In this document: positions 3,001 through 60,000 of the stretch, piece after piece | Layout: each line of letters opens with the position of its first letter | How positions within the stretch are numbered: the stretch's first letter is position 1 | NCBI GenBank assembly: GCA_964354795.1 | Contig: CAYHBB010000040.1 | Location: 76,593-140,592, forward strand | Reading direction: 5' to 3' | Origin: an uncultured Planctomycetales bacterium | Lineage (GTDB): Bacteria > Omnitrophota > Gorgyraeia > Gygaellales > Profunditerraquicolaceae | DNA length: 64,000 nt | Position numbers and translations under genes: made by a program | Notes under the pieces: generated by a model | What the model saw: the letters and a program-made list of their open reading frames with translations, nothing else | Databases searched by the model: none | What the model was told of the DNA's origin: nothing

Positions 3001-6000
3001 GTGCCAGGGGCATTTATCACTATAATCATTCTTCCAGATATTCCATAAACTGTCGCCTTCCTTGACAATGATAGTATCAGCCGCCCTCTTTTGTGGCTGA
3101 GCAACGGATTCCGCGTTTACCAAAGATGCAAATAAAGTTGAGGTAAGGATTGTAGCCAGCGATAGAAAACCGAGCAGCTCAATAAAAGTTTGGCCGCTGA
3201 CAACCTTTGCGCCCCTAATATAGCGTTGCTCAGGGATCGTTCCATCGCTAAGGGTATTGCGCAGCCGGTTATCTCTTGCAGGACCATGTGGTGCCGGACT
3301 GTCCAGCCCTTTGGTCACCGACCAGAAAAGAATATCCTTGGACGCTCCGATAAAAATAGAACGGTATGTATTCTCTCCTACGAGAAAAGTTATCTCTACA
3401 AAATTATATTCAGCATTAGTATGGACAATTTTGTAGTGGGCATTGATGATGATCTCCAGCGCCTTCTTCAATGGTATATCTGTCCCGCTTAAATCTTTTT
3501 CGGTCAACCCGCCACTGACAAAATCCTGAGCGATTCTTTCCTCTGATTCTCCCGTAGCCCTGGCAAGCTGCATTATCAGGGAATGCTGCATAAGCTTATC
3601 TTTTAAGGGAAGATTCGTTTTGATCTTATTCGCGCCTTCCTGTGGTTTCGCCTTGGACTTTCTTGCTGCTGCAACTACGAAAATCAGCCCTGCTACCACT
3701 AATACGCCAAAACCTACCACTAACCAAAACGGAAAACCCAGAATATTCGACGGAATCGTTGCAGTAATAGTAGTTATTGAGGCAACTAACGCAAAATCCA
3801 AAGGCACAATGGAAAAAATACCTTCCGGGCGGGGATGGGTTTCTGCGGACGATTGAGGATCTGCTGGTAATGAAGAATCAGGCATAGAGGATTTCTTTAA
3901 CAAATCAGCTACCTGAGCGGTTAACTGCGAGTTTCTAAAAGGCTTATGCATTATGGCATCTATAACAGTAAGATCCAAACCCCTGATCACATAACCGGAG
4001 ATCAATATAACCGGTATATTTTTATTCTTCGCCTTTACCTCTTTAGCTAATTCTCCGCCGTTTTTACCGCCGGGCATTTGAAAATCAGTTATGACTAGGT
4101 CAATATTTTCTACCCCTAATATCTTAAGCGCCTCTTCGGCATTAAGGGCGGTCAAAATATCATATCCTTCGCCACTTAACACCGCATCAAAAGTGCGCAA
4201 GATCATGGGTTGATCATCCACGAACAGTATTTTCTTCTTAGCGACAGATCCGGATTCAGTGATATCTTGAGAAAGCTGAATGGCCCCGTTTCTCGTTGAG
4301 TCCTCTTCTTCCTTCTGCGTATTCACGGGCTGAAGGCTGGGGATGACTTCCGAGGCGGGTTTGAAAACGCTTATCTCGGCAGAGCTTTGCCTGGCCTCGT
4401 CAGCAGCGCACTCCATTATCTTCGAAGACATTGCAGAAATAGGGATTCTCTGGTGCGGTATTCCGGCTCTGGCTATGCTATCCGGCATCTCTTCACAATA
4501 CCTGCTCCCATCTTTTGCAATTTCGCTTGGCGTAATATGCTGGACAAGAACTATGCCTCCGTTGCCCGCAATTTCTTTCGCTCCCGCCGTTCCATCCGAT
4601 CTCAAGCCTGATAAAACAACACAAATAACATCCTTATTGAATTCTGCTGCTGCCGATTTAAATAACAGGTCGATGGGAGAATACGCAATAACCTTACTTC
4701 TCCTAATGACCTCCCCACTAGCCGCGCTATCGAATAAAACCATAACTACCGGATAGCCGTTGTTATCTTTTTCAATCCAAGCATCCCGGCTAGTAACAAG
4801 TATCATCCCGCGCTCTAAATAGAACCTCTTTGGCGAATCCACACTTGGTTCACACAAAATGATCTTTCTCGACTTGTTTTGCTGAACAAATTCGGTAAAT
4901 GCGGCATAGCAGGGCCGTAAGTGTTCGTTAATTATGACCGGGGGATGATCCTGCGGCAATCCTTCAATTATCTCTTCGATCGCTTCATATCCACTGCGAG
5001 ACGCGCCGATCACGATTACCTTTCCTTTGTAGTCGATTGGCTTATGCGTGTCCGCTTGAGGAGTGGAAATTACTGTACCGAGAAGTATTGGTAGAATCGC
5101 AAGTGCCGCAATCGGCCCGGCGGTGGCTAGAATACTTGTGCCGATGCCGGCAAGGGCAAGCTTAATCGCGGCCCAATGCGGCGCGATAAAAAACGTTATC
5201 AGCGCGCCTACCGCCACCAACCCAATGAGCGCGATCAGGCTTACCCCGAGCTTAGTCGAGGGGCCTTGGCCTTCCTTCGGGGACACCCTTCCGATTTCCG
5301 CCAAAATTCTTGGCGGACTCGCCGCGTTTTGTGGCGAGGGCTCCCTGGCTGTCCCTTTTGCCATGAGGCCCCTTAACCTGATTAACTCATCACGGAATTG
5401 CTTTAGTGAAGAATACGCGCCGCTTCTTACCTCCCGGTGAAAAGCGCTAACTTCGCCGATCAGCCTTTGATTAACAGCTGTGTCATCAGAGAATCTTAGG
5501 CCGGGGATGATTTCCTCTATGAGCCTTCCTCCTTGCTCCCACAAAGCCGCATTAAAAAGCAAGCATTCTAGCTTAGGATAAATAGATAATTCCGTTTTTT
5601 TGTAATCAATAAAAATAACGTCTCCATTAGCAGTGACAATTTCATTATTGTCATTAATATCCCATATGCCGCGCACCCCTTTTTCCTCAAGATAGATGCA
5701 GATCTCGGTGATTTTTATCACGATATTAAATACCTCATCAACATATTCGCTAAGCGGCCTGCCTTTATATTTAAGAAAATGATGCGAGAAATCCCTGCCT
5801 TCTACATAAGGATAGACTATCGCCTCAGAATAGATATACGTATCATAATCGTCGGAGCTGATCCATAATCTCTTTCCGGGGTTTAATTCCGGCCTTGCGG
5901 TCATTCTGCGGGGACGATACACTTGAGAGTAATCGCCGCCTATCCTGTCAAAAGCCTCCTCTATGCCGTCACAGTGCGCCGTGTCGGAACAACCTTCCCG

Positions 6001-9000
6001 CTCTGTTTCAAGCTTGCGAATAACCACTAATTTCGCGGTATCCTCATCTACAGCTAAGTCCAGGCGCCGGGTATCTAACCGTCCGAAAGTACCGAGGATA
6101 AGGTATCTTTTATTTTCCTCCCCAAAGCTAAGCACTAACTCTTCGCATGGTTCTGGGGCCAGAACAATCCCTACCGGCCTTTCCCTGTTGACCGCTATGC
6201 GCATTAGTTCCGCGATCATCCTGTTCCTGCGGGACCTGTCCTCAAAGAAGAACCTAAACAGGTCCTCCGTGAACGCATCAGGCCTGTTTTTCATCCAGAA
6301 GAACAGCTCATCAAAACTCTCCCATTTCAGATCTTCCACTTCCCAAGAGCCGGGATTAGCCTTATCAAGCCTGGCCATTTCCTCGGCGATCCTATCCGCG
6401 TTCCCCTGTAGCTCATAATGTATCTGTGCCAGCGTTTCCGCCCTTCCTTTTATCCTGGACATTTCTTCTTCGGTCATGGGCAGGATAAAAAACGCCCTTC
6501 TTTCCTTATTGGAATCAGTTTCTGAATCATAAATAAATTCCCCGGGGACTCCCACCGGAATAAGCCTCTGCTTTAATCTTTCCTTAAATGTATCTGTCAA
6601 CTCCTCTTGGTCATATATATGCATCTGCTTTGTGACTTTATTGACAACTGAATCCAAATAACTAAAACCCGCCTCCAGATGCCCGCCGAATATTGTCCAT
6701 AAGTGGGGGTATTTCTTGAATCCTGCGCGCTGCTGCAGGATAAGGCCAAAATCCGGGGTTACCAGGGCGACATTTGCGGTCCTGTGCCAAAGGCCGGCGG
6801 CTTCAGCGATATTCTTATCTGCCTGGCCGATTACCTTTTCTTGGCCGGTAGTTGAGTTAGGGTCCAAAATATCGATTATTCTTCCGCTAGGATATAGAAA
6901 CGCAGGGTCCTCCTGCGGCAGGCGCAGCCTTCTTACAATTTCTTCGATCTTTTCTGCTTCAACGCCCAAGGATTTAAGATTTTCTCTTACTTGATCCAAC
7001 GCGCAGGCGCCAAGAAGGGCCTCTTTGCTTTTTTGCGCTTCCTCCCTTTCGCCGTACAGCTCTTCGTAATGGTTCATGACGCCGTTCATGATGCCGGAGA
7101 TCTGCTCCATCGTAGTATCGAACGGCATCTCGCATGTTAACCCGAGGAGAAAACGGTCGCGGTGCGCAAAGCGATCCATAATGGAGGATACTTCAGCCGT
7201 CAGCTCGGCAGGATCTTTCGCGGGAGTTATCTGTGAAGCCATGATGTTACCGATAAGATAATTTCCGGAAGCGGTAAGGACTTCGTACGCCTTTTCGAGA
7301 TCGACCTCCTCGTCGATGCTGTAGGCGTCGACGTTAAGGCCGGTCATGTTCGACAAAAACGGCGTCGAATCGCCGCAACCGTGGAAAATGACACCGATGC
7401 CCTTCGCCTTCGCCGCGGCGGCTACGGCGTTCACACGCCGCGTGATGCAATCGTCGTAATACGACGGCGTCATGATGGCGGTCGAAGGCTCAAGGATGAC
7501 GATAGCGTCCGCGCCGGCCGCGGCATACGCCTCGGCCTCCTGAGCAGAGACCTTTACGCAATAATCGAGGAGCGCCCCGAATGTCTCGGGATCGTCAAGC
7601 ATCGCCATGGCGGCATCCGCTTCGCCCACCAGGCGCGCGGCGAGAGTGAACGGCCCGATCACGTAGCCGACCTTAGCGACCTTGTTGCCGTATTCCACGC
7701 TGAGCGCGGCCATGGCGTTTATGAATACGCCGGTGCGGCCGTCCCTGTCGATCATCGGAAGTTTCAGTTTCGCGATATTCTCCTTCGTCAGAGTAAACGC
7801 CGGCCCAAATAACCTGCCTTCCTGGTCGATATGTTTCGGCCCGAAAACGGACCGTACCGGAAGCGCGCCGCTCTCTTTATTCGCCTGATAAACGGCCTCC
7901 GGCCATGATGAAAGATCCATCATCGTAAATACTACGTCGAGCCTGAGAGAATCCTGGACGAACCGTATAACCTCAGCCTGCTTTGACGGATCGGTGGCAA
8001 GATCCTTTACCGAATAGTCTTTACGCTCGTGTTCGTTAAAAAATTTCACTCCGCCGAAACTTATAAGCGGCATCCACATGGCTCTATTGCGCATATCGTC
8101 AAAGGTGATCCTTGCGGCTTCGGGCGCCGGAGCCGCTTCGCCTTTATCGACCCTGCCCCCGTCCAACGTCTCGCGCACCACCGCCCCCAGCATGCAGGCG
8201 CCAAGGATTAGCGGCAGGCTGTTCGGCGCGACAAACGCCGCCAACGCGCCCAGCGCCACAAACTCAAGCAACGCAATCATGCCTTGGCCAGACGCAGGGG
8301 ACACCCTTTCGATTGGCTTGATGGGTGTCCCTTGATTGGGTTCATGGGTGTCCCCATCTTGACAGAAGGAAGAACGCAGGACATACACAAAGGTCTCTTC
8401 TTGGATAAATACAGGCGCTCCCTCGCCCATATCATTCCATTCGCGGGACTTGACTTGGCGCTTATACGGCCCAAACTTAAAATAAGAATGATTTTCCCTG
8501 CCGGAAAACTCCTTTATTTTACTTTCGATTACGCGCGAAGCCTCAACTGAACAATGATCATCCGGGAATACTGAATGCCGGAAAATAACCCTTGCCTGCG
8601 CGACGAGATACTCCTGGACATTCGCAAAGAAACATTCAACATGTTCCTTATATACATATCTGTACCCGCCGTCAACAGACCTATCCCAACCGTCGACTGG
8701 AGAAGGAGTAAAGACAATAAGGTTAAATCTCCTTCCTTCCAGCCCCTGGAATAGATCTCCGCAGACAAACTCAAGCCTGCCCGGATTTGCGTTATTGTAA
8801 CCTAAGCTTTCGGCATTGGCCCGGGCGCAATCGACCGCCGCCTCTTTTACATCTGTAAATGTCACATGGCCGGCTCCCCGGCTAAGCATGATCAATCCTA
8901 ATATGCCTGAACCCGTGCCCAGATCAAGGCAGCGCTGGCCCGAGATGTCCCTGCCTAAGCGCTTTGCGATCACCCCTGTCAGCATGCCGCTGGGGGTGTA

Positions 9001-12000
9001 GACATCTCCCCCTGAAATTACGTACCCATCAAGTTCGGCTACATAGACACTCTCCCTCTGACGATAACTATACCTGCTTTTCAATGGTACCGGAAAATCC
9101 TTAGGCCTGGCGGAAGGCTTATTTCTTTTTATTCTGATCTTCTGGAAACTTCCTTCTTTCGACCATCGACGGGCGAGAGATTCCGGGACAAAAACATCTT
9201 CAGAATCTGAGAGGCTGCAGCACAATAAAAGCAGAGCTAATGCAAGAAAACTTAAATTGCCTGCGGAGACCACTGGCAAAGCTAAAAAATGTGCCAGCGC
9301 TCCGAGAGCCACCAGACCCGTTAGAAATACCAAAACGCTTACCTTGCTGACCAAAATTTCTAACGGGGCCAGCCCAAGGAGAGCAATCAGGATTGCCCCG
9401 AGCTTAGCCGGGGGGCTTTGGCCGGAAGATGAAACCCGGCCCTGTCTTTCCTGCATTGCCTTCTGCATTGCTTCGGCTAAAAACCTACAGGAATCCTCCC
9501 AGATGACACCTTTATTTATGTATAGGACAATTACCCCTTCTTTTCCTTTTAGTCTTTCCTGAACAATCTCTTTTGAACCATCGGTCCTCAAAATAACAAA
9601 AGTATCGGGCTTTATAGTTTTAATTTCCGACGCAAGCTGATCCCCATCCATTGTACACATATGCAAATCAGTAATAGCTATATCAAAGGGGCCTTGTCCG
9701 CTTTTGAATATTTCTATTGCCTCCTCTGCGCTATGTGCCGAGACAATGATGAATGCTGGATCGATCTTTCTTAATTGCCTGACCAGCAATTCTAAATCTT
9801 CTTCAGCATGTTCTATGACTAAAATTTTAATTGGAATATTTATATGTTGTGCGGATTGAATAGTTGCGGCGATAAAGAGGAGGCCGAGGCCAAGCGCCGC
9901 AATTGGTGGGCCGTGGTGCATGAATGCGCCGGCGATGGCAAGCTTAACCGCAGCCCAATGTGGCGCGATGACAAAAGCCGTCAGCGCGCCAAAGGCCATC
10001 AGCCCAAGAAGCGCGATCAGGCCCTGGCCACTGCGTGATCTATTTATCGAAGCACTGCCGGCCTTTCTTTCCACATACTCATCCACCGCTTTTAAGAATG
10101 CCCTGTTTTTCTTTGATTCAAGATAATAAAATGTATAGGCGTGCAATGGTCCCGCGGCGGAATCCATAATCTCTTTTTTCTTTAACCCAAACTTGGTCAA
10201 TTTATCAAAGAAACCTACTGCTGACCAAAGTTTGTCTTCGCAGGCTTCCGCGTGAATGGCGCCGTTGCCTATCTTCTGGCTTAAGGCTGCCGCAGCCTGC
10301 ACAAGCCTTGTGCCTACATAAGACAGCCCATTTTTGTTACCGGATGACCTTTGATGTTGCGGCTTGACGTCAACGGAACCGATAGCAAGCGCGTTATCCC
10401 TGTCGGGATACTCATAGTAATCCAGCACCTCCCTGTCAAATTTAAGGATCCCGGCCACTTTCTCCTTAGCGGTCAATACCAGCTCTTCCGATTCAAGATT
10501 AAGGAATCCGCGTATGATACAGGGCACTTTATTTCCGGCATCATCAATGACAAAAGTATCCTGCCTGAACCTGAAAAGCCCCCTGCGCAAAGCGCTAAGC
10601 GGATCGCTTATTGCTTCAAGTTTCAATCCTGCAGGCATCATGAGGGACAATTCTTTTTCCGCCTCGCTGGCAGAAGTAAAGTGCCTAGAAGGTATACCGC
10701 AGGATTCTGCGTTTACGACAAAATCCTGCCTGTCATCAAAATAAAGCATTTGCGAAGGCTGCACATAAAATTCCTGCTCGGTAAGCAGTAAGAATTTACG
10801 GAATATCTGCGCCCCGTCTCCCTTTCTAATACCCATCTCATAGGAGGCGTAAATACGGTCTGCCGCGCTTAACACTTCATATTTCCGCTTCAAATATGCA
10901 AGATGCATATGATTGGTATCGCTTAGGAAAGCCACTTTGATTCCGCAAGCCTTGAGCTTTTTTATCAGGTCAGCCGTATCCTGCCTTAGCTCGTATGAGC
11001 CGTTCCAGATACGCTTAAACGTCGCAAAATCAACACCCTCCAATTGAAGCTCTTCGGACATCTGCGCTACGAACTTACTTGTCGAGACCTCTCCTCTTTC
11101 GTAGCTGTGGTAGACGCCTGAATCCCTTAAAATAGCCGTTACCTCTTCTACTGTCTTATTGGTAAAGCCTTCTTTTACGAATCTCTCAGCTACCCTTTTA
11201 AAATCAAAATAGACAACAACGTTTCCAATATCAAAGACTACAAACCTTAACCTATCTGTGGATTTCTTAGAAACTGAAGAGGAAGTGTGCGTGGAAGACA
11301 CCGCTGCGGCAAGGAACGGGAGGAAAGCTATCGAAGCCAGTGGCCCGGCAATGGCAGGATGGCTCGCAAGACCAATGATGGCCGCCAGCAAGCCCAACCC
11401 TGCGAAACCAAAAAGTATAAAACACGCTAAATTATGATCAAACCAACCATGCGATCTTCCATTGGAAGAAGTGCGTTCGAGGATCTTCTGCTGATAGTGC
11501 TTTATCCAATAAAAAGCGTTATTAAGCCTCTTCTCCTGCTTTTTGGGATCCAACGCTTCTTTTAAAAAATCCACCCCGTCTTTACTTATATCAGATTTTT
11601 CTGACGCCTTAATAATAGTGTCCCTGTACTTGATGAAGGCCTGCAAGACCAGAATCTGTGTTTGTGAAGCCCTGATCTCATCCTCCTCGAATCTTAACGC
11701 CCCATACTTGATCTCATTAAGCATGTGGCCGTAAGCCTCATGGACAAAATCAGCCAGCATCACCGACGGATCATTTAAAACATTTTCATTAAGAATGATC
11801 ATATAGCTGTTTGAATTCGTTCTTTTGCTGAATATCTCAATATGTAACCCTGCAGGAGCTCGCCCTTCAAATCCCTGCGGGATATACCCTTTGCTGAATT
11901 TATAAAGCTGGACCATTTGCTCATCCGAGGCCCTGCATATACGCAGCCTATCGGTTTTCCAAAGCTCCAACACCAAGGTCAAATCAGCTTCCCCGGAGAA

Positions 12001-15000
12001 AGCGCCAACCATAGCCATCGCGACCTTGATCAGATCCAGTTTCTCTTCTTCGATCGCCTGAGCGGATACTTTTTCCAACAACTTTAATTCTTCCAGCTTA
12101 GCATCCTTAGGGCTCAATATTCTTCTGCCAAAATCATCCTTCATACCAAGCCCATTGACAGAGAGCTTAACAACCAATTTTACTCCAAGCAATGCTGCGA
12201 CAAGCGCCAAAACAGAAGCGATTACCGTTACTTTAGGTTTTCTGAAGAAAGCGAACACGCGGCTTCGGTCGGCGATTTTTGCCGCATTGATCAACCGCCC
12301 TGCTTCCTGATGGGGGCTGGGCCGGTCTTTTAAGGAATGCTCTATGACTTCGTGGATTAAGTCTTCTTTTGCTTCTTGGGTTTCTTTCTGGAAAGAACTC
12401 AGGCTTTCTTCGGTAACGATCAGGGTGATTTTTCCGTCAATGCTGATGATGACTGCGCCAAAATCCTTATCTATCCCTATTTCCCGATGCCTGACTACCG
12501 CGATACGATCAATACTTTGGACTACGGGCCCGGCGCGGATATCTTTAGCTTGAGCAAGTATTTTGCCTATCCCCTCCTGCTGCCCGGTTAAATACGCATT
12601 CACCCAAGGCATATCAACTTTGATTATTTTATTCTGCCCGAAGACTTTCTCAATTCTTTTTAGATCCTTACGTTTTAAGGCTCCAGTTTTACCGCGATTA
12701 TTTTCATCCTCTCCGGGCAATTCAGCGTCGAAAACTGTTTCCGCCTGGTTTTTCCAGAGCTTCGCTGTTTCCCCATTATGTCTCACCATTATAATCTTCC
12801 AATCAGCCCTAAAGGGATTCCAGTAATTCTGTCTTAAGTTTCCCTGAAGGATATGCGGGTACTTTCTCTTTATCCGTTCCCAGGTTGAAACATAAAACTC
12901 ATCAATGCCCATAGATCGGGCTACCTTCATGACATGCCTTATGGCAGCGTTGTTCCACACCCGGTAAGGATTCTCTTTAAGTTTTATCTGCCGCACGCCT
13001 CTGCTGGGATGCACTTCTTCAATAAAAAGAGCGGGCCTGCCGTCGCAGTAAAGATCTATTATTCCCACCCTCAGCCTTCCAAAAGAGCCATCCAGAGGAA
13101 GATAGGCATCGTACTCCGTAGGCGGGAATTCGACCAGGGCAGAAAGCTCAGGATGTCCGTCGATAAAACCTTCTTGCGGGAATATATCTGCAAACGGCAA
13201 TATCCGGTAATCAAAATCTGATTCTGTTAAATCACAGCGCGCAGGTATCATAAGGTTGCTGCCATCGCAAAACTTATATTCCCATTGGAAATCAGGATCT
13301 ACCTTTATCCTCTCAAAGAGCTCACCCGTTAATCTGTCTTTTTCTATTTGAGTCAATCCTTTTTTATCTTCCTCCGTTGCCACTCCGATGGTGCAGGCAC
13401 TAAGCATTAACGCCGCCGGCAGATAACAGGAAATAGCAGAACCAATCCCCGTGAAAACGAGCGCGGAAAAACCAAAGAAACCAAAGAGTACGAACATTAT
13501 TGGATACTGGTAGTAATAATTATAAGGCTCGAGGGTATCAATAATAATATCGGGATTACGCGGCCCATTGGTTTCCTTTGTGTACATATATTTATTCACG
13601 TGCCTGAATCGCTGCATTATCTGCCACCATTCCGGAAAACGTCCGCGCGCCCTGACCTTAAGCCGGCCCCTCCTTACTTTCTCATCCGTAACTATCACTT
13701 CGGCAAATACGTCGAGAAAACCGTTATCCTGCGGTATCCTGTTGACCCCTTCCACTATAAACACATCTACATTTGAGTTATCCTTGCATAAACCAGCGAA
13801 TGTCATCTCTGCCCATGATTCCAGAGGGGTCCTTTTTTGTTCTTTGAAGGCAGTTTTTTTGTTCATTCCGTTTGATTTCAACCAATCAAGCAGTGTATTT
13901 CTTATTAGGGTCTTACCGCTTCCGGGCTTGCCCTTGATCAGGACAACCACCGGCCTCTTGCGGCCCTTTGCCAGCTCCTCTTGAATGCGCTGCTTTAAGA
14001 CAACCAAACCCTGTCTTAAGCCAAATGCATTAGGTGAAGACAGGTAATCGGACCGGGCCATGCCAAGCAAAAACGGCGCGGCAATAGACACTGAAGCGAA
14101 TAAATTGAACCAGTGGTTTTGGGCCGCTTCCCATAAATCAAAATCAAAATTAGAAATTGATATGATCTGAGCCAGAAATGCCAAATACCAAAGCACAGCA
14201 GCGCCAAATATACCCCAGAATACCCACCGTCCAAATAGACTGAATATCTTTTTGAAATCAATATGCCAACAGCTGGGCCTATCCATTGACTCGGTTGCCT
14301 TAAAGACTTCTATTCTTAACTCCTGTGGTAGCTGAGTATAGATAGAATCATCGAGGATAGCTGCCTTTGCCCAATGTGTGATCGCTGTTTTTTCATTACC
14401 AAGAAAATAATGGATGTAGCCGAGATTTCCATGCGCCGCAGCGATATTTGGGTTACTAACCAGGACATCCTTGAAAAAGGGAATGGCTTCGTGATACCTT
14501 TCTTCTTCGCAGTATTTTAACCCCAGGTCAAATAATTCTTTTATTGTGAGCTTGGAATGCCGCAGGGTATATCTTTTTTCGCGGTTTTGACTAAGTTGAA
14601 CGCACATCCCTCCCAAGACAAAAAACGTAATAGTGGCGAGAACGCTTGTGCCGATGCCTGCCAGCGCAAACTTAATCGCGGCCCAATGCGGCGCGATAAA
14701 AAACGTTATCAGCGCGCCAATCGCCACCAGCCCAAATAGCGCAATCAGGCTTTGGCCGGAATTACCCTGCTCCTCAGTCGGCGGATTCAATGGATCATTG
14801 GAACGGTAGTGGTCAATAGAATAAATTTTTCTTATGATATGTGGATAGCGATTTTTATTTTGATATCCAGGAATAAATATATTATAACTTTTATCAATCC
14901 TTACTTCAGATACTCTGGCTAAAGACAAGAAAACCATTTTTACTTTTTGAATATGCGTTCGTAATTCATCAACTATCCCACGATCAAATTTCTTTAACCT

Positions 15001-18000
15001 GCCTCTAACAACATAGAGATCAATCACACATTTATACTGTCCGAATGCCTCACACAGAGAAAATGGTACTGCCAATAAAAGCCTCTTTAGGCGCGAATCA
15101 GCAGTTCCTTTAAATAGATCAATACGCTTACACAATATTTCATAAATGCAGTCGAGCTCATGACAAACCTTTTCTAACTTACTAATTGATGGCTTTTCCA
15201 TGGCGTTAGCAATCTCTTCTGCCATTTCCAAGTGAGGCCACACTTCTTCTTTAATACTTTTTGCTTCTCTACGCACTAGTTTAACAACTGTTTCTTGAGG
15301 CGTTCCCCGAGGCGCTGCCCTTTGATCTTGTGGTTGCTTCCCATTCGCAGAAACCACCACTCCCAGCGCGCAGGCGCCGAGGTTAAATATGCCAAGCCCT
15401 AATGCCGACGCATGGATCGGCCCAGTGATAAGTATCGGCGCCAAGATAAACGCCAGCACCACTAGCCCAAGAATTCCAATTAAGCTTTGTCCAGATTGGT
15501 TATTGATACATGCTGTCGCAATTGTGTCGGAAACAGTTTCCCCTTGGTTTTTCCAGAGCTTCGCTGTTTCCCCATTATGCCTCACCCTGACAATCATCCA
15601 ATCATACCTATAGGGAATCCAGTAATTTTGTCTTAAGTTTCCTTGACAAATATGTGGATATTTTTTCTTTATCCGTTCCCGGGTTGAGGCGTAAAACTCA
15701 TCAATGCCCATAGATCGGGCTACCTTCATAACATGCTTTATGGCAGCGCTGTTCCACGCCCGGTAAGGATTCTCTTTGAGTTTTATCTGCCGTACGCCTC
15801 TGCTGGGATGCACTTCTTCAATAAAAAGAGCAGGCCTGCCGTCGCAGTAAAAATCTATTATTCCCAACCTCAACCTTCCAAAAGAGCCATCCAGGGGAAG
15901 GTAGGCATCGTAATTCGTAGGCGGGAATTCGACCAGGGCAGAAAGCTCAGGATGTCCGTCGATAAAACCTTTTTGCGGGAATATATCTGCAAACGGCAAT
16001 ATCCGGTAATCAAAATCTGATTCTGTTAAATCACAACGCGCAAGTACCATAAGGTTTCTGCCATCGCAAAACTTATATCCCCATTGGAAATCAGGATTTG
16101 CTTTTATCCTCTCAAAGAGCTCGCTCAGCAACCTGTCTTTTTCTGTTTGCGACAATCCCTTTTTAGAAACACCCTTAAGACTGTTTCTTCCCGGACCCTT
16201 GTCGTCATTTAACTTACGGCAGAACTGTCCCCCATCCTGAACACACGCCGCCACCATCACTGCGCCCAGCGCTCCTGCCGGATGCATAAGGCCGGCAACC
16301 GCCAGCGCGCCCAACGCCACCAGCCCGAGGAGCAAAGGTAGGCTAAAGCCGGATTGAGAAGATGGGGAAACGTCCCCGATTTTATTTATTTTATTCAATA
16401 TTTCTCTTAACCCGCGTAAGTCTTTTTCCGCGGCATTGCTCATGGCAATAATTAAGTCAAAATGCTCACCCCTAAGCTGCTCCACCTTTCTGCTGATTAA
16501 TTTATTTATAAAGCGGCGTTTGCGCTTCAGGGTGCGCAGGCTGATTTTCTCTTTGAAGTTCTTCTGCTCGTTCATTGCAAACTGCATTGTCGCCTTTGAA
16601 CACAGGAAGCTCTTTATCTCGGGAAGGGTTAACCTGATCGATACACCCTTTTCGGTCATAACCACCCTGGAAGCCACCTCTGGCCGGTTGCGGATAAATT
16701 CTTTTAAGGCCCTGGCGACATAACCGTAGTCTGCCTCGCCAAAATACACCAGGTTCCTGATCGAGGCAAACTCTGGGTTAACCACAAGCTCCCGCAGGTG
16801 CGGCTGTTGTGCAGAACTAATGCCGATTACCTGCTGGTAGAGCTTGCGCAGGGTAAGGTGAAACTTAAATTCAAAAACCGCGTTTTCGCTTATTGCATCA
16901 AATTCTTTTACCTGGATTTTATCCCTGATTAGCACCCTGTCAATTGCCTTCAGCCTTCCGGGGCTAAGGTTCTTTAATGTGCTCTGCCTGTTTATGACAA
17001 CCTCGTATAACCCCGATATCTCGCCAGCCCATCCCAGCACGCGGTAGCGCCAACCTTCACCTGCCTGCGGCCACTTAGCCATATCCTTGACCGCTGCCCG
17101 GACAAATCCATGGATCATCTCAGCTGCCTGCCCATTGTATTCTAATAACTGCGTAACTTTCCTGCGGAAATTTGCAAACGAAAAGTCCCGGTTCACGAAG
17201 TTGCTCAATTTCTCTAAATCTTCCTCGACAGAAACGAAGCCAGGATTATTTTCTTGGGAAAGCACTGCGCCAAGAGCAAAAATGCCAAGCGCTAGTGCCG
17301 ACGGGGCATGAATCAGGCCGGCAATAAGTATTGACGCTAAGATAAACACCAGCGCCACCAGCCCGAGGAGCGCGATCAGGCTTTGGCCGGAGTCAGAGAA
17401 AATAGAACCGTCCCCTTTATTTGCAGGCAGGCTGAAGCCGGATCTGGATTTTTGGCTTTGTTCTCCTATCCTCTTGTGCAACAAGGCCTCCACGGAGGTG
17501 GAAGCGTCCCCTTTACTATATTTTTCTCTCATCGTGGCAAACTTCTTCGCTATTATTCGCCTTTTTTCTACACTATTCAACATCCGAGGACGGAATATAA
17601 GATAGGACCGAAAACCGGATAATTTAATATCAATAACCACAGGGGCCGTTTGTCCGTCTGCTAATGTTCTAACAACCACGTTAGCAGAGGATAAATCCGC
17701 GAAATTAAGTCTGCTACTCTGCATAAACTCTTCAATCCTTGCCATCTTATTCCAAAAGTCAGCGCTTTTGACCACCCCGTAATCTTCAAGGCGGGGAGAA
17801 ATACGGCCAGTGGCATCCAAAATACATTCTGTTTTTAGCGCAGTTTTTCCCCTGTATTTAGCGAATCCGTAAATTTTAGCAAAGCTATCCCGTAGATCAT
17901 AAGGGATAGACGGCGCAATACGTCTATACATTTTGTATTCATAACTGTTAAAATCCAGGATAAATAAATGCCGTAATAATGTGCGTATCCTCACTTCGGG

Positions 18001-42000: not shown

Positions 42001-45000
42001 AAACTCATGCGCCAGGCGCGCCTGGAGTTCCAAAGGATCGGCATATTCATCTGCTTTTGTCAATATAATGACCTCTTTTTTATCCGGATGGATTACTGCC
42101 CTGATCTGGGTGCCCAGGTAAAGAGTCTCTGCGTCTACGCTCATCCCCTGCCCGCCACGGACAGAGACCTGATAAATCGCATAACCTTCGATCGCCTTTT
42201 TAACAAAAGCTTCCTCTATATTGATACGCTGTGACTTTAAGGCACTAACCAGGGACGATACTGTCTGGTCTATCAATTCTCTGCCGGTTTCCTCCCTCCG
42301 GTAAACGCCGCAAAGCGTAAACAGCCGCCTTACTTCCTGCGCGCTTAATTCTTTATCCGCGCAGGATAGATCCTTACTATCAACGCTAGCGGAAGACTCC
42401 AGTTTAGATGTTTCCCCCGTATTGCCGTGATCCAGGTTGAACATTTGGGCTACCGCAGGAAGATAATCTTTCTCAAGCGTAGAGCGTATGCGGGCTTCGT
42501 CTTTCTCCAGTATCTTTATATAACGGTAAGCGCTTAAGTCGTCGCTCCTGTTTTTCACATGGTGCATTACGGCTTGCGTATAAGCCTGGATATCAGGCTT
42601 GGCAATATCAATGCCCATATTCATTATTTTATTTCTTGTGGCAAGCGAGACAAGATTAAAATAGGGATCGGATACGATCAATCTCTGAAGAGAAAGCATA
42701 GCCATGGCCCAGGCGACGATCTCTTCCTGTACCCTGCTTTTAAGAAGCGCCTTTTCGTCATGCCTTACGGGATCAGCAGGGTGCATAGCAGCAAAATCCT
42801 GAAAGATAGCGCGCGCCCACATGTGGCCGATGATCTCATGAATGATATCGAATTCCTTTATCTCCTCTTTTATTACCCACCCGGCGTCTCTTTTCTCCAA
42901 AGCGCTCTTATCAATGAAAAGATAGACTTTGCCTTCATCCGAAGTGAATAATTTCGCCTTAAAGCGCGGATATACGCTTCCTAATTGGGCAGAAGTATCC
43001 ACAGCCAGGATTTCCGGCAAAGGAACTTCATCAACAGACTCAGCTAAAACACCCAAACAGCTTCTGACGTAGCCTGTCAGGCTTAATGTATCAACCGGTT
43101 CGCTGAAGAAAGTATTATTCAGCAATTGCCTGTCAAGCCTGGCTCGCTGAAACGGCGATAACGCACAAGCCTTAGCGGCCTTTGCCTCATGGCGCTCGGG
43201 ATGGCTGTTCACCATCTTGATAAAACTAAGGATCCCAAATTTAAGGGTTGTGATCTTTTTCTCATAAACCACGGGATCGTGCTCTATCTTTTCGTGCAAG
43301 GGGCCCTGCAAGTATTCCGATGGCAGAATAATCGAATGAGCATTCTTTCGGGGCGCAGAACAGTGCAGGATACTTTCCGCTGTAATAGAAGTAACAGGGA
43401 TGCCGTAAACACCGTTAGCCAGATGACTGAAACAGGCATCCTGAGCAAGGACTGTAGTGGCTATACCTAAAATATTATGTATGTAAGGCTGGATCCCCTC
43501 TTTTTTGGGCACAAGGATCTGGCTTTGGGCAGCCGTGTTCTTATTACGCATCTCATTCCGGGCTCCCTCTACAACTTTTTGCAAATAATCATTGCAGGCT
43601 TCTGCCTGCCTTCCCCAGCCGCAGGTAAACACAAGATAAGCGCCTTTTATATCGCGCGCAAGCGCGATAATCACACCCATCCATTCTTCGGGTTCTAGTA
43701 AGCTGCGCTTGGATATATCGGCCGCATATAAGTTTATGATGACCACTTTTTTCGTAGGGTCAAAAGCTCCTAATGAGCCACCACTATTGCATTCGTCAAA
43801 TAATCTCTTCATCCAATCCAGGGCGATGATCGACTCTTCGATGCCGTATTGTATTGCGGGCATATTTTCTACGGTTACATCCAGGCCCAGGATACCGTAA
43901 GTCTCAATAGGAAGAAGCCAGATGCCAGTTGGCTTCAGCAGCCATTCAGACGCCACATCATTACTGATCCCGGATTTACTGGCGACTTTCCCGATCAGCT
44001 CTTCCATCCCCGATACATTATAAAGACAGCCTTCGCGGTCTAAAAATGTCGGATGATAATACCCGTAGATAGCGGGGCTCATCAGGCCAGGGTTCAAAGA
44101 CGAAATATTCGACAGCGGAGCGAACAGCCTGACGACATAAGGAGATTTTCTATTGATTGAATTGCCGGATCCCGCAAGCCAATTAAAATTTCCTTCCCCT
44201 CTGCCGATATCTATAATGTCGATCACCATATCGATCTCATGATCAAGTAAGACGGTTTTTAACTCTACGTCAAAAGGCTTATTGTCCTTTTTGCATTGCT
44301 CCCTTATTTCTCGCGACGAAGGTATCAGCTGGATCTTACCGGTAAATTGCCTGGCTATGAAAATATCCGGCAGGTCTGAGGCCAGATATATAGTGGCATC
44401 CGGAAACTTCTTCATCAATCCGGTCACCAGCGGCCAGAGAGTGATAGTCTCCTCTTCGAGATCAGATATGATCAGCGTCTTAAAGTCAGCAAAAACAAGA
44501 ATCTTCTTGATTTCTTCAGAAGGGATCTGCGCAAGCGGCTTGCTGATTGTCTTTTTCTCCCCTTCGTTGCTAGATGCCTGTATCAGAGCGCCCAGCAAAC
44601 CAAAAACAAGCAAAGATGCAGGATGAACCAATCCCGCGATAACCGCCCCTAAAGCAAAAACCGCAAGGATTATCTGCAAGGTGCGGGTCGATGAAGAATC
44701 TTGCGCGCTGCGTGCTTTTTGTTCGGCCGCTGCGGAGGCCTTATTTGAAGCCCCGCTGGAAAGCGACTTTTGCTCCCCACCAGCCACGGAAGGTAGAGCT
44801 AGGTCATTGTTATCCTTTCCAGCGGAGCAAGGCAAATCTATACAATCCCCATCCCTTTGCTCGCTTTCGCTCGCAAGGGACGCCTTCGCCCCTTCCGGGG
44901 CTCGGCAGCCAGCCACGGAAGGTAGAAGATCGCCTTTTTCAATTCTTTGCAACGGGGCATGACAAGTCTTTACGGGCCCCATCCTTTCAGATACATTCAT

Positions 45001-54000: not shown

Positions 54001-57000
54001 TATTCTGGAAATCAATTCTACAAACGCGAGGGAATTATATCTTACTTCTGAAGCGGCTATCTTATGCAGTTCTACTGCGCTATATTTATTATTGGCGACC
54101 CTGGCCTTGGCCAAAGTAGCCAGGAGGATCGCGAAAAGATGCAAGGGGTATTGCGGGCGGGTGTCCTGCGGATAGACAATATTCTGGTTTCCGCGGATGC
54201 CGGCAGTAGATTTCTCCGCCTCATCCTTGTATTTCGTTAACCATCTTTTTAAGCCCAATCCTTCAGGATTATTCTTCTCATCAAAATCAGATAAATGCGC
54301 TTTGGTTAACGTAACCTTAAACTCACCGGGATTTGATAAATCTATCCGGGAATTATTCTTTACGTGCGCGGGAGTCCTCTCTTCTATGTCGAGCAACAAC
54401 TCCCGCTCTAAAGCGCGGGCCCTTTCATTATCAGAGCGGCCCGATACCACAACCATGCCCAACAGGCCAAGAAGGATAAATGATGTGGGATGAACCAATG
54501 CAGCTAAAGCAGCAATACTGAAGAAGAAAATAATGGGTAAGACAGAACGCAATACGAGAGCTGAAGGAGCATTAGTTTCAAGCCAGAATAAAACTCCGTT
54601 AGTAGAAACCGACAGGTCTTCATTAAAACGGTAGCTGTATACTTTGCCGGAGGTGTGCACTTGGATCGCGCGCGGTTTAGTAAGGCGTATATTTACGTTT
54701 ACAATATCGTTATCAGACAGGCCGAATCTTTCTTTGGCATCCTGCGTTACCAAGACTTTTAACCTTTCAATGCGCTTTTCATATTCCGTGATAAGACGGT
54801 CGATTGCAGCGTCATGTAATTTAGAAGTGACTCTGCCGGAGAATGTCGAATTATTATTTCCTTTAGCAGTCTCGTGCCAGACCGTTTCATATAAGCGCAT
54901 CCATGTTTTACTGAATCCAGCAGCCTTATTCGGCGCCGTATTCTTCAAGGCAAAGACCGCTGCTACTAAGAATAAGGCGACCGCCCCCATTACGATCAAT
55001 AGTTTATTGCTGATCTTCCCCGACGTTTTGGTTTGCCGGTTGTCAGCCGCCGAATCCCTGGCAAAAGAAACATCTCCCTTTTGATAAAGCATATAGGCGC
55101 CTTCGGTCAACTCATTATCTTTTAATTTCTCGGGCGAGGTATTGGTCTTAACCAGGCGCAAATAATCAAGGAAGCCCTTACTTGGCAAAGTCACATCCTG
55201 CATGTAAAGGTATCCGCCCTCTCTTGTGCAAGAAAAGATATTGCCGTAATACTTATCCGCGGATCCGTCCCTGGCGAGCTTCCCTCCCAGGCCGGGGAAT
55301 TTCACGATAGTAAGGTCGCTTGCTCCTTTTAAGAAATCAAGCGGCTGGGTGCAATCTTTACGATGGAAATGCACAGTGACTTTTCTCGCAAATAATCCGG
55401 ATCTATACCTAATCTCGACTTCTATTATATCTAGGGTAGGATATTTGTAGGTGAAAGAGTAATTGAAACTGTCGCCGGTGAAATTGGGGATATGGTTATG
55501 GAAGAACCCGGTAATAGTTTCCATTGAATACTGGTCTTCATTATCCACCAGATGCACATCTGTTACTGTCGGGATGTTCCTGATGATTTCATAAGGCAGG
55601 GAGTAGTCCCAGCCGCAGGCAAGATAAAGGATGGTTTTTACTTCGCCGTCCGGTATCAGCTTCCAGACAGCTTCCCGGGCGTTTGTTTTTTCCGGGCCTG
55701 CGCGGCTTTCCTTGCCGCGGCTCTCTGCAAATCTCCTGAACGCGCTAACAGCGCTGGCAATAATTCTGCGCAGGCCCCGGTAGAAATCTGCATCAAAGAG
55801 CATGCCAGGGAAAGAGTAGAGCTTTGAGGATAAGGGATTGCCTTCAGAAGGTAAAACAAACCTCAGGCGGACCTTTACATGCGCGCCTTCCTTTAATAAA
55901 GCGATGATTTCCTTTGGAGCTAAATTTTGCTGCCAGGCACCCTCCACTAAAGAAGCCTCTAACACCACCGCTTCTGTGTCTTTCAGGTAGCTGACCACGG
56001 AACTAAGCAAGGCTACTGTAGGATGGCTGAAATTTATGCTTGAGACCTTGCCTCTTAGTTCACCTATCATCCATTTAAAAACTCTGCTGCCCAGCCCCTG
56101 CCTCCTTGCTACCCGGCCGTATCCTATGGCCCTTCCAAAAATAAGAAGGTCAAAACTTGCTTCCCCTTCTTTGGCTCTGGGCAATACCAGGTCCAAATGC
56201 CCCATTTCCTTATAGTTTTCGGCTCTATTCTCCTGGCCCCTATTTGTATTAAGGTAAATATAATCAAAATAATGCGATGCGTTGCTGTCGGCAATGTCGG
56301 CCATATGCCTGTGGAGCTCAAGCTCCCCCTCTATTGAACAGACAATACTTATTTCCAGACCTCTGACATCTACCTTGGCCGGCCCCAGCTTAAACATAGC
56401 TATGTGCTCTTTTTTCCCGGATATTTTTCCCATCTTCTGATAAAGATTCCGCGCGTAGTGATGGGGAACATTTAATTTTTCTCTGAATGAAGATTTTTCG
56501 TCTTCCCAGACCAACATATTTATGACTTCAGGATATTGAGTCTCCAACCCCCTGTCGCTTACCATAATGCTGGCTAAAAGATATATTTCAAAACCTGAAT
56601 ACCTATCGGACCTGATCTTCTTGACCCAAATCTTTACTTTTAGCTCCGTTGACTCGGATAGATCATCGGAGAGAGGCAAGCTGCTGATAATACCCACATA
56701 GTCGTAATGAAGGGCGCAGTTGCAGCTACATTGATTGCCGTTGCCACCGAGGCTATCTTCGATAGCCAGGTCCATTAATATGCTGACGATCAGCTCTTTC
56801 CTTTCAGGGCCGCTATGCGTGAAGAATCTGGCTATTTGCCGGCCTTTATCAAAGACAAAATTGCCCATCCAGGCTTTCAGCCAATTCTTAACTATATCTT
56901 TCTCGATCTCCTTGCCCGCGCCTTTTAAATATCCGATCAATTCTTCATTGCCCATGATCCTTTCATTGCCCATTTTTATCGCTTCAAATTTATCGCGCAG

Positions 57001-60000
57001 CTCCTTGAGTGAACCGGTCAATTCCTCAACAGATACCCTTGTCTCTTGAGGAAGGTGTAAAACGTTACCAGGATGCTGCTCAAAAAAGACGATCATATCT
57101 GCGATATTTGCCAAGGCTTTGGCGGCATTCTGCACAAAAATAGGGTTTCCTCCGCGAGAAGCATTGACCACTATTTCAACTTGATTTGCCAACAAAGGCA
57201 TGATTTCTTTAATTGATCTAATGCCCCCGCTTATCTGGCTGTTAATGTTGCCTACTACATCCTCGTTTATCTGGCCGCTCATTTCCTTAAGGCAAGGGTC
57301 TCTTACTTTCTCAAACAGCTCCGCGATCTTCTCGTCTGTTTCCATGACATCAAAATCTGGATTATTTACCGCCATCCCCAATAGGCCTAACATAAGTAGC
57401 GATACAGGCTGGACAAAGACAGCTTGCCCTTCGGCAAGACTCAGGGCAAGCATGGCTCCGACGGCCAACATAAACACCCACTTTGAAAGCGCTTTCCTGA
57501 GATTTAAAAATAAAAGGCTACGGTAAGATCCGGGAGGAAGCGAATAGCAGCTCTCCTCCCAAGTCTTATTGGTAGATAAGATCGCGCTTATCAATAAGTA
57601 TTGACTTGACCTTGGCCATGAGGATATCCTTGAGTTCCTGGCTGGCCCGTAGCCAGACGCCGTCTGCGGTTTTCCCCCTGACTGTTCCGTCGGGCTCGAC
57701 AAGGAAACAAAATTCAGACCACCAGAGAGGATGTTTAACAAATACGAAGAGATTTTTTGTATCAGGCAAGATGCGGATGATTTCCAATTCCTGTAAATTG
57801 ACCATTTTGTTACCTCCTTATTATTTTTGGCCGCTGCCAAGGATTTAAGTAAAGCCCCGTTGCAAAACGACAAATCTTCCCCACCAGCCACGGAAGGTAG
57901 AAGATTGCCTTTTTCAATTCTTTGCAACGGAGCATGACAAGTCTTTAGCGCCCTGATTAATAAAAATCCTAAACCCGGTGTAAATAATCCGTAGAATCCT
58001 GAATCGCTCCTTAATGCGGCCTTGGCCTGGCCCGGAGCAGAAAACAGGATGAAACATCCGATAAATGTAAGGTTCGAGATGGCCTGGCCGGTCAATAACC
58101 AACCGAAGAGAATAAAGCCTAAAGCGCATGCCCTGCTTATCCCCAATGTTATCCGCGTAGCCATATAACTGCCGAGATGCAGCTTAGAAACCAAAACGGC
58201 TCTCAGTATCCTTCCCCCGTCTGTAGGAAATACAGGAAGAAGGTTCAGGGCCGCTAAAATCAAATTAATGTAGGCAATGCTGCTTAAGATCTGTGCCCAG
58301 CTGCTGACCCCTATAGTAAAGGTAAGGCCCCCGGGCACAAGCCAGAAACTGAGCGCGAACAATAACGGCGCCAGTAAGATATTCACCAATGGACCGGCAA
58401 ACGCGATGCTCATCTGCTCCCTGGGAGTGCGGCCAACCCCCTGCATGCGGGCGAATCCGCCGATGATCGTCAAGAGGACATCGTTGGTCCTGATATGGTA
58501 TTTGCGCGCCTTCAAGATATGCCCAAACTCATGCAAAGTCACTAAGCTGAATATGGCAGCGTAAAGAACCAGTCCCGGCAATCCCCATGCGTTAATCGCA
58601 AGGAACAGGCCCAGATAAAGGCTCCAGTGCGCTCTTACGGGGACTCCTTTTACGGTAAAGAGGGTGATATTCAATCTATCAAGAACACCATTCAAATTTC
58701 CATTCAGGGAAGCTGACAGCAGCGGAATCGGTAATCCTAGACAGGCAAAAGCAGCGCCCGAACAATCGCTCCTTAAACCTTCCAATAAATTCTTAAAGGC
58801 GCTTTCTTCGATATTACTCTTACCCATATCGTGCTCTATGTCTTCAGCAGTGGCCCGTTCATATTTTTCCCTGTTATCAGCCAGAGCAAACCCGTCCAGC
58901 TCATGGGTCCCCAGGACAGGGGAAAGCCTGTATTCCTGCGTCCTTATCACCGTAGGCCAGATATAAATGAAATCCCCCAGCATGGAAACTGAATGTTCAA
59001 TATTTTGAGATTGAAGCGCGGATACGCACTTCATAAAGGCGGATTTGAATCTTTCCGTGCCATCTGCCTTCATGCAGATCACAGATAAAGGATAATCAGT
59101 GAGTACATATACCTCGGCTCCCTGAGCCTCGAAGGCGGCTTTTCTGGCAGCGCTTTCCACGGGCAGAGAACAATCATAATAATTTGCCTGTATGTGCAGA
59201 TGGAAGACAGAAGCTAATTTCCCGGGATTTATGCCCAATTTTAATCTTGGGGAGCGGGATAATCTCCTTATTGCCAGCATTGTCTCAAGGGCCGCCTCGC
59301 TGACCTGCTGCGGAAATTCTTTTTCGGGCTCAGGAACGATTACAATGTGGTACTTAAAGGAAGCATTCTTATTGATATCTACAGCGATATGCCTTGCGTC
59401 TATCACTAAATCCAGGAGCCTCCTTACAGGGCCCTCTTCCTTCAGGAATTTATTAAAATTCTTATTGGGATCGAACTTTAAAACATCAATGTTAGAGCTG
59501 CTCTTTCCGGTATTGCGCGCCTTCTTCGCATTATCGTAATCTGCGCGTCCGGAATTGAACCTCATCATCCACCTGCCTACTTCCCTGGTCTCGGTAATGT
59601 AAGGGTCATACGCGAATACCCCGGGCTGATGCGCCCTTATATCCCAAAGCTCCTGAACCGTAGTATCAAAATCTAATACTCCCTCCACAATCAGCCTTCC
59701 CAGTATCCAGCTCGCCTGCCCTTGAGAAATTTCATCGATAGCCCTGATAAATTCCTTCTGCCAATCGCTCACTCTTTGCTCGGATTCACGAAAGACCATA
59801 TCCTGGTAAAGATTCAGGATTATCTGGGTCTTTAATTCCTCGCTCAGGACGCTGTTCTTTCTCAAGACTTCTTTGACCTGCGCTGCCTTGACTGCTTCTG
59901 AGGCCTCGCTAGGTTGCGCGCGATTGTCATTGAAACCATCAGGATTATTATTGTGCCACTCCCAGGCGCTTCTGATTATGTCTTTAATCCCCATTGTCGG

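Follow-up and report, generated by a model that had tools for sequence, protein, structure and literature searches.

Rickettsia palindromic elements (RPEs), reportedly described by Ogata and colleagues in 2000 as inserted in frame in protein-coding genes, are palindromic repeats of about 100-150 nt that stay frame-open within open reading frames (ORFs), where they are translated as extra peptide segments, and that lie in non-coding DNA too. In the early mRNA of phage T7, intercistronic RNase III hairpins are placed between the coding units of one long transcript. The lambda nut boxB and RAT antitermination hairpins act on long transcription units and have a conserved loop, which is recognised, on a stem that covaries. 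The attC site of integrons is a strand-specific hairpin that conserves structure over sequence and marks mobile units of shared orientation. How the giant genes of Omnitrophota (30,000-147,000 codons) are transcribed, translated, and evolutionarily assembled is an open question. According to one published account (PMC3733652), repetitive extragenic palindromic (REP) sequences, bacterial interspersed mosaic elements (BIMEs), and REPINs with REP-associated tyrosine transposases (RAYTs) are short hairpin-forming repeats, GTAG- or CGTC-tagged palindromes often located just 3' of genes in operons; for REP hairpins, a role in stabilising mRNA or in termination has been proposed, and they are also mobilised (PMC3733652). 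Here, we describe a hairpin element carried by a stretch of 64,000 nt of contig CAYHBB010000040.1 (hereafter, the window), the whole minus strand of which is one stop-free reading frame of giant size.

The repeat consists of the 5' arm and the tip of an irregular hairpin of 80-140 nt on the coding strand. Positions 44909-44972 and 57884-57947 both translate, in the giant frame (minus strand), to KTCHAPLQRIEKG(D/N)LLPSVAG and are identical at 62/64 nt (blastn E 3.7e-22 within the window); the expected count of such a match in 64 kb is essentially zero, so chance is no explanation for the repeat. The first-pass annotation had thus been right in reporting a repeat at two distant sites and in placing the first of them (site A). 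The coordinates that it gave for the second (copy B) were off by 2-5 nt, and a third copy encoding LPSVAGG, which it put at 44800-44830, is real and lies at 44774-44797. The length of 61 nt corresponds to the 5' arm and core of the full copy B (57884-57947), and the similarity extends further: 57821-57947 aligns to 44717-44842 at 72% (blastn), and 44909-44987 to 44780-44857, again at 72%. Site A is thus a tandem pair of ~129-nt units, A2 followed by A1, which Tandem Repeats Finder does not detect because they are too diverged.

The three copies have in common the exact 18-mer TCTACCTTCCGTGGCTGG (the core; minus strand, 57884-57901, 44909-44926, and 44780-44797), which in the third copy is part of the 24-nt tip given above. 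Scanning the window with the 24-nt consensus at up to 7 mismatches returned no copy beyond the three, and at 8/24 mismatches one extra site appeared, part of a transmembrane linker. Copy B is A2-like over the 5' half (97%) and A1-like over the 3' half (78%). The stretch over which B and A2 are 97% identical ends precisely at the invariant core, as would be expected from ectopic recombination anchored there, and points to recent ectopic copying or gene conversion with one endpoint in the core. The 3' half of A2 has a variant sequence (CUGCCGAGCCCCGGAAGGGGCGAAGG...) and forms no pairs with the 5' arm. Two differences separate A2 from B, one synonymous (GCC/GCT) and one D/N; a template/variable repeat pair of a diversity-generating retroelement was rejected because these differences are not adenine-specific. 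Loci from other assemblies are referred to below by our L numbers: L003, a 94% relative, carries the copy B hairpin with 15 extra nt at the 5' end, which match the A1/A2 flanks in the alignment.

From the outside inwards, the hairpin is built of a helix P1 of 10-19 bp, an A-rich asymmetric internal loop, and a helix P2 of 5-9 bp, at the end of which stands a 24-nt invariant tip with the consensus UCUACCUUCCGUGGCUGGYGGGGR. Copy B folds at -34.4 kcal/mol (z = -3.0; 0/200 shuffles equally stable), with the 18-mer at the tip and GCUCCGUUGCAAA/UUUGCAACGGGGC as the outer helix, and A1 takes the same shape via GCUCCGCUGGAAAG/CUUUCCAGCGGGGC. Compared with B, A1 has two P1 pairs that changed on both sides in a compensatory way (U-A to C-G and C-G to G-C), and its tip is identical at 24/24 positions while the overall identity is 72%. 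The architecture extends to the family: in 48/48 distinct copies with enough flank to be folded, the core lies at the hairpin tip and the fold is alike.

MAFFT staggers the P1 arms, since the internal loops are of unequal length, and P1 was tested by script and P2 by pair counting. P2 is paired in 80% of the cells versus 51.5% in shuffles, and its covariation score is 0.80 versus 0.24, a value that 0/500 shuffles reached; when the partner is slid, the paired fraction falls to 30-46%. The longest contiguous P1 helix has a median of 13.5 bp, compared to 7 bp in chance hits of the core and 8 bp in shuffled flanks. The stems are unlike in sequence between loci yet remain paired (e.g., GCCCAGATGCAAA/TTTGCATCTGGGC, CGCCGCCGCGGC/GCCGCGGCGGCG, and GGAGAGGCAG/CTGCCTCTCC), and they include a few P1 subfamilies common to several genomes, such as GCCCCGTTGSAAAG and GGCCGCTGCGG. 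Read from the sequences, the tip varies as Y19, R24, and G20A, a pattern that fits a GUGGCU hexaloop on a small helix at the apex, CCUUCC/GGUGGG. The antisense reading of the tip is CCAGCCACGGAAGGUAGA, and the sense tip would be partly complementary to the conserved GGAA-tetraloop region of the bacterial signal recognition particle RNA (CCGGAAGGAAG), possibly by chance.

The exact 18-mer was found at 38 metagenome loci and 52 genome loci. About 17 matches are expected by chance in the genome collection (596e9 x 2 / 4^18), and 21 genome loci, near this number, lack the flanking structure; they belong to Arthrobacter, Halomonas, Lysobacter, Acidobacteriota, and similar taxa, and their P2 is 0-2 bp long. 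The remaining matches come from metagenome-assembled genomes (MAGs) labelled Candidatus Omnitrophota or, in third-party assemblies, "uncultured Planctomycetales", and the latter are mislabelled. In these Omnitrophota-type matches, the core is followed by YGGGGR and lies between inverted-repeat flanks. Most copies were found by exact-core search, and the distinct ones in Omnitrophota/"Planctomycetales" MAGs and metagenomes amount to about 56; one Logan contig (L002) is 100% identical. The hairpin element is specific to Omnitrophota and phylum-wide. Rfam 15 gave no gathering-threshold match on the window, with only noise (E 3.7-9) over copy B, and no match at E <= 1 on eight element-carrying loci; a CRISPR repeat, whose Rfam score was at noise level, was dropped. 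The core sequence and LPSVAGG have no mention in the searchable literature, and neither of the two Omnitrophota giant-gene papers mentions such a hairpin or palindrome.

Some copies are intergenic: they follow directly on the stop codon of greA, the gene of a transcript cleavage factor, and a PilZ-domain gene starts 10-40 nt beyond them. These loci were sought by a PilZ protein search, independently of the core, and the encoding contigs were then fetched. Seven distinct greA-pilZ loci were obtained (L058, L034, L041, L100, L099, L101, and L102; PilZ identity 72-100%), four of which (L099-L102) were first reached by PilZ homology. The 18-nt core is exact in 7/7, across species, and the stems vary mostly by G-U-type steps; in L034, the hairpin is followed by a run of seven U. 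At the pilZ site of relatives with 53-56% PilZ identity (L098 and L096), no hairpin was found: in L098, just 12 nt separate pilZ from the upstream gene, and in L096, pilZ is preceded by a tRNA-like 3' end.

Long open frames, most of them reaching both contig ends, contain 48/56 copies, and all 48 are in sense orientation with none antisense. The core is read there in three frames: LPSVAG in 21 copies, STFRGW in 19, and YLPWLV in 8. Read from the sequence, it is stop-free in 3/3 sense frames and in 2/3 antisense frames; with two antisense frames open, stop-codon tolerance cannot explain the orientation bias. Homologous modules of the window, L046, L052, L066, and L068 are followed by copies in different frames. 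We read these modules ("...KEAGPTSFGNAQVNG...QAKGL..W") as possibly glycogen-phosphorylase-like, and Pfam has no match in this stretch. Among the stem pairs, 190/1426 are G-U, and only five A-C mismatches occur. The sense fold is more stable than the antisense one in 44/47 copies (-48.4 versus -37.8 kcal/mol; Wilcoxon p = 4e-9). G-U pairs being common and A-C rare, the sense strand is the folding strand. Thus, the constrained molecule is the coding-strand one, either the transcript or coding-strand single-stranded DNA.

With modest confidence, we consider the element an RNA boundary hairpin kept at module junctions, which probably works in 3'-end formation, processing, termination, or factor binding. 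Four lines of evidence suggest it: the tolerance of G-U on the sense strand, the placement right after stops (greA, and the nested gene described below, in four lineages) or before start sites, the orthologous conservation, and a partial enrichment in U-tracts, as a U-rich tail (at least 5 U of 8) follows 14/48 copies versus 5% expected. The hairpin would fold in the transcript and would be a "punctuation" signal of the between-gene kind, recognised through its tip. Retained at the module junctions of giant genes, it would be translated there since it has no stop in any sense frame. It is from the sequences that we infer both RNA as the folded molecule and the hairpin's action, and several observations weigh against them. 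A U-tract follows only about 30% of the copies, and standard terminator and promoter scans do not call those of the window. The case for an RNA-level role comes from strand asymmetry and location, and G-T pairs are tolerated in single-stranded DNA too. Intra-strand template switching in palindromes is able to mimic compensatory change. The invariance of the tip is partly an effect of ascertainment, the bias-free set being the four greA-pilZ loci L099-L102. Finally, the dynamics, with nested tip insertions (L099, L068, and L085), 129-nt arrays, and absence from L004, resemble those of a proliferating repeat.

The latter point leads to the main rival explanation, a selfish non-autonomous palindromic repeat without host function, like a MITE (miniature inverted-repeat transposable element), a REPIN, or an RPE, which we regard as possible although unlikely. 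Such a repeat would spread by transposition or self-targeted insertion, would persist in giant ORFs only via its three open sense frames, and would owe its strand bias to strand-specific single-stranded-DNA transposition or to copying between giant genes. Presence and absence indeed differ between relatives: in L004, an 80%-identical relative, the end of the M50 module and the Shine-Dalgarno site of the small gene described below are present, and the hairpin between them is absent. The orthologous greA-pilZ hairpin of L099 holds a new copy within its tip, exactly at CCGUG^GCUGG, and the two halves of the older tip are decaying. Nested L-L-R-R layouts were found in L068, L085, L066, L043, L056, L087, and L091, with GTG on both sides of the insert in L068 and L085; solo copies such as B have no target-site duplication. 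L045 (L045:1-238) carries a tandem array of an A2-type variant unit of 129 nt (43 codons; 96% identity), and the array of MAG CAYGZJ01 (L045:1-238; L089:1-90 and 6850-6990) ends in an A1/B-type unit, the layout of site A in the window. Short-read contigs L001, L002, L045, and L089 begin inside the element, and the array contigs start or stop there. The few P1 subfamilies common to several genomes and the 97% identity of B and A2 are also coherent with spreading. Against it stand the tip, 24/24 identical where the flanks are at 72% and exact in 7/7 orthologous greA-pilZ sites; the 0/48 antisense copies despite two open antisense frames of the core; and the absence of decayed solo copies in the 64 kb, of an identified transposase partner, and of matches to the core in viral contigs or to copy B in plasmid and phage collections. 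The tip is strongly constrained, yet the element duplicates, nests, and gets lost. A boundary signal and a selfish repeat are compatible, as REP elements show.

The same dynamics could also be those of a DNA recombination site, that is, a single-strand hairpin like attC or the origin of an HUH endonuclease that moves modules between giant genes. The location at module boundaries, the strand-specific folding, the module indels between relatives, the nested insertions at a fixed point of the tip, and the B/A2 identity that ends exactly at the invariant core would all agree with it. We hold it improbable: a 1.85-kb module indel is bounded by the palindrome GAAAGCGCTTTC and not by the hairpin, the greA-pilZ copy is stable and has no cassette association, the boxes that define attC are absent, conservation is at the tip and not at the base, and we know of no recombinase linked to the element. 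The first-pass annotation had offered a DNA regulatory or recombination element or an inserted repeat among its explanations, and in kind this is borne out by the covarying hairpin, its phylum-wide presence, its absence in L004, and the nested and tandem copies.

Its other proposal, a functional peptide tag for sorting, cleavage, or modification, conserved as protein, fared worse, and we consider it highly improbable. In each of the three window copies, the motif falls in frame and within a linker. Nevertheless, a search among 5.8 billion proteins returned no candidate sharing even three 5-residue words, and the codon-degenerate CHAPLQRIEKG pattern occurs nowhere in 596 Gb of genomes or in the JGI metagenomes, collections outside which the source genome itself lies. 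Furthermore, the core is read in three frames elsewhere, even after homologous modules, and is present in untranslated intergenic DNA, and A1 retains the tip nucleotides but not the upstream amino acids. The absence of peptide homologues and the three reading frames also led us to reject the known sorting and cleavage signals (LPXTG, PEP-CTERM, and lipobox), the lipobox being dropped since VAGC occurs only at A2. The peptide KTCHAPLQRIEKG(D/N)LLPSVAG is an incidental by-product of the translated hairpin. As for an assembly, adaptor, or vector artefact, which the first-pass annotation had considered, it is close to untenable: related genomes conserve the element, independent assemblies (NCBI, ENA, JGI, and Logan) carry it in consistent contexts, no plasmid, phage, or viral sequence matches it, and contigs break at it as at any repeat.

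Table 1. Coordinates of the hairpin copies, their parts, and the features discussed here (window positions, unless an L number is given)
Feature	Position	Strand	Remarks
Host giant ORF	1-64000	-	0 stops in frame; Pfam tiling
Full copy B	57822-57960	-	with decayed outer stem CAGGGCGCU ... GCAGCGGCC (latter 57829-57837)
Copy B, inner hairpin	57854-57933	-	architecture as in all 48 family members folded
Copy B, P1 5' arm GCUCCGUUGCAAAG	57920-57933	-	followed by A-rich 5' internal loop
Copy B, P2 5' arm	57902-57906	-	
Copy B, invariant 24-nt tip UCUACCUUCCGUGGCUGGUGGGGA	57878-57901	-	
Copy B, P2 3' arm	57873-57877	-	
Copy B, P1 3' arm	57854-57867	-	
Copy A2	44858-44985	-	tandem unit of ~129 nt; P1 5' arm 44945-44958, core 44909-44926
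Copy A1	44722-44857	-	older and complete; 72% identical to B; tip 24/24 identical
Copy A1, P1 5' arm GCUCCGCUGGAAAG	44815-44828	-	tip 44774-44797
Copy A1, P1 3' arm CUUUCCAGCGGGGC	44750-44763	-	
Copy A1, outer 3' arm GCAGCGGCC	44725-44733	-	
79-aa ORF with Shine-Dalgarno	57566-57819	-	AAGGAGGU 57812-57819, ATG 57803-57805, stop 57566-57568
Hairpin GGGAGGA.../...UCCUCCC	57498-57568	-	overlaps small-ORF stop; then U-rich tract UUUUAUUUUU
Palindrome GAAAGCGCTTTC	57485-57496		edge of 1.85-kb module (~55628-57484) absent in L004
Possible fourth, degenerate relic	9317-9367	-	arms CCCCGUUAGAAAU/AUUUCUAACGGG (CCCCGTTAGAAAT/ATTTCTAACGGG), P1-type, without canonical tip
greA-pilZ hairpin	L058:3311-3415		orthologues in L034, L041, L099-L102
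Small-gene loci	L004:476-715, L005:1-240, L019:1710-1946, L066:6735-6971, L087:148-363		74-79 aa
Small-gene loci	L036:6399-6635, L046:6955-7167, L068:102-338, L086:481-708	-	74-79 aa

The features of the window and of the other loci are collected in Table 1. Beside the three copies, the sequence around 9317-9367 may be a decayed nested copy in a hydrophobic linker: the flanks of this hairpin are core-like (CUCUCCUUGGGCUGG and UCUGGUGGCUC; CTCTCCTTGGGCTGG and TCTGGTGGCTC), and its fold is no better than that of shuffles (z = -0.8), which makes the indication a weak one.

At 96 nt downstream of the core of copy B, TAATAA, AAGGAGGU, and an ATG introduce an ORF of 79 aa whose frame is -1 with respect to the giant one. 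This is the strongest spot in the 64 kb for another frame outdoing the giant frame in codon usage, and its ratio of nonsynonymous to synonymous polymorphism (pN/pS) is about 0.2 in its own frame versus 0.5-1.0 in the giant frame, which is stop-free across the small ORF in every relative. A programmed frameshift into the small ORF was rejected because of stop codons 4 codons upstream of the ATG. Its homologues are of 79 aa, and a search of 1.84 billion proteins gave about 40 cluster representatives, 71-95 aa long. The protein has a predicted fold of five strands and a C-terminal helix (predicted local distance difference test, pLDDT, 86.7), with no Pfam, NCBIfam, or PHROG match and no significant fold match in the PDB. 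The small-gene family lies at most 350 nt from the hairpin in nine lineages, downstream of it in the window/L003, L036, L066, and L068, and upstream in L019, L046, L086, and L087; in every case, it has an ATG and a strong Shine-Dalgarno sequence, and the giant frame runs +1 to it. L004 has the small gene without the hairpin.

The second hairpin of this neighbourhood (57498-57568) looks terminator-like from its sequence and is read through by the giant frame; L004 keeps its GGGAGGA/UCCUCCC stem with a different loop (L004:712-800, z = -5.9). The palindrome GAAAGCGCTTTC, which may act as nucleotides or as the peptide KALS, also occurs 8-40 nt upstream of the hairpin element in seven other loci (L019, L020, L046, L062, L071, L088, and L014). 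Taken as a whole, the neighbourhood of copy B resembles a small but complete unit of transcription and translation, and the giant frame reads through it. A more speculative extension, which we regard as rather doubtful, is that giant genes contain an internal punctuation cassette, made of the tip-invariant sense hairpin, the nested 79-aa gene with its own ribosome-binding site, and the terminator-like hairpins. The hairpin would then act as a checkpoint, and a dedicated factor bound to it, perhaps the adjacent small beta-barrel protein, would gate transcription or mRNA integrity into the next modules. If so, a single ORF of 60-400 kb could be expressed in a modular and regulated manner.

The giant frame that hosts the element runs through the window for 21,333 codons and is open past both ends, with 0 stops versus 623-1565 in each of the other five frames. 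Pfam describes it as a mosaic of ordinary enzyme and signalling domains with hydrophobic linkers between them: three epimerase/dehydratases, Peptidase_M50, PGM/PMM, HD, an ELFV (glutamate dehydrogenase-like) dehydrogenase, sigma-70 region 4, transglutaminase, superfamily 1 (SF1) helicase, PAS, receiver (Response_reg) domains, URO-D, sugar transferase, methyltransferases, and HAD. With an ORF of more than 10,000 aa, many different enzyme Pfams, and transmembrane linkers, the window is a multi-enzyme giant gene of the Omnitrophota type, and the relatives are labelled Omnitrophota. Its architecture fits class 1, "multi-enzyme metabolic cluster", of the Omnitrophota giant proteins (2026 preprint). 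The module context described in the first-pass annotation is correct: copy B comes directly after the Peptidase_M50 module (domain at aa 1814-1937 of the window frame), and copy A is located just ahead of a hydrophobic two-helix stretch at ~44.58-44.69 kb.

Elsewhere in the giant gene, module and linker duplications show recent intragenic duplication, generally at aa 14,000-19,700; positions 12727-13026 versus 15526-15825 are one such pair, and the duplicated blocks comprise one of 227 aa at 82% identity and several linker repeats of 35-110 aa. A recurrent family of hydrophobic linkers (G-x-S-L-I-A-L-L-G-L-V-A...) has the 9-mer GGCTGGTGG in common with the hairpin tip, in another frame. This 9-mer occurs seven times on the minus strand of the window (0.6 expected) and never on the plus strand, and GGYTGGTGG is found on the minus strand at 5222, 14732, 16325, 17363, and 21491. 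The sharing may reflect a common origin or coincidence.

Giant reading frames are thus not featureless: a structured element that is phylum-wide and strand-specific lies in them, and its tip is strictly conserved. The hairpin and the nested gene that adjoins it in several lineages, which has a ribosome-binding site of its own and, after its stop, a terminator-like hairpin, look like gene boundaries kept alive within one ORF. There are two practical warnings: peptide "motifs" in the linkers of giant proteins may be translated nucleic-acid signals, and short-read contigs break at these repeats. Defined hairpins and a small protein are testable handles for the study of RNA ends, a covariance-model census, and proteomes.

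Among the known systems, the element fails the defining features of REP sequences and attC and departs in part from those of canonical terminators. REP sequences are extragenic and 20-40 nt long, with a conserved stem sequence and a tetranucleotide tag at the end; this element, at 80-140 nt, is mostly inside ORFs (48/56) and conserves the tip, which sets it outside the definition of REP, and we know of no RAYT partner for it. In attC, it is the stem base that is conserved (R and L boxes, RYYYAAC and GTTRRRY) and the centre that varies, whereas here the situation is reversed; attC was rejected because the stem base varies freely between copies and the B arm GTTGCAA does not fit GTTRRRY, and no integrase was seen in the fetched flanks, which were not searched systematically. 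An intrinsic terminator has a G+C-rich stem, a loop of 3-8 nt, and a U-tract right behind; here, the base of P1 is G+C-rich, and the hairpin greatly exceeds the size of such a loop. The tails after the hairpin are UUUACUUA in B and UUCAAAUA in A1. MITEs have terminal inverted repeats, a target-site duplication of fixed length, and a related autonomous insertion sequence; here, the P1 arms act as inverted termini, and no autonomous partner was found. The boxB and RAT hairpins are much smaller, and the resemblance to them is purely one of analogy. With the T7 RNase III hairpins, the element shares a long irregular hairpin made of a lower stem, an asymmetric internal loop, and an upper stem, although the T7 sites are untranslated and have no invariant tip. 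Like RPEs, it is a palindromic repeat translated within open frames (the three window copies, and 48/56 overall). Membership in Rickettsia RPE-1 to RPE-8 is implausible, the hosts here being Omnitrophota: besides the different phylum, this element has an invariant tip on freely varying stems, is strictly sense with its core in three frames, is concentrated in giant genes, and has a nested small gene nearby. Compared by behaviour, it is most like the Rickettsia palindromic elements and like REP and intercistronic processing hairpins.

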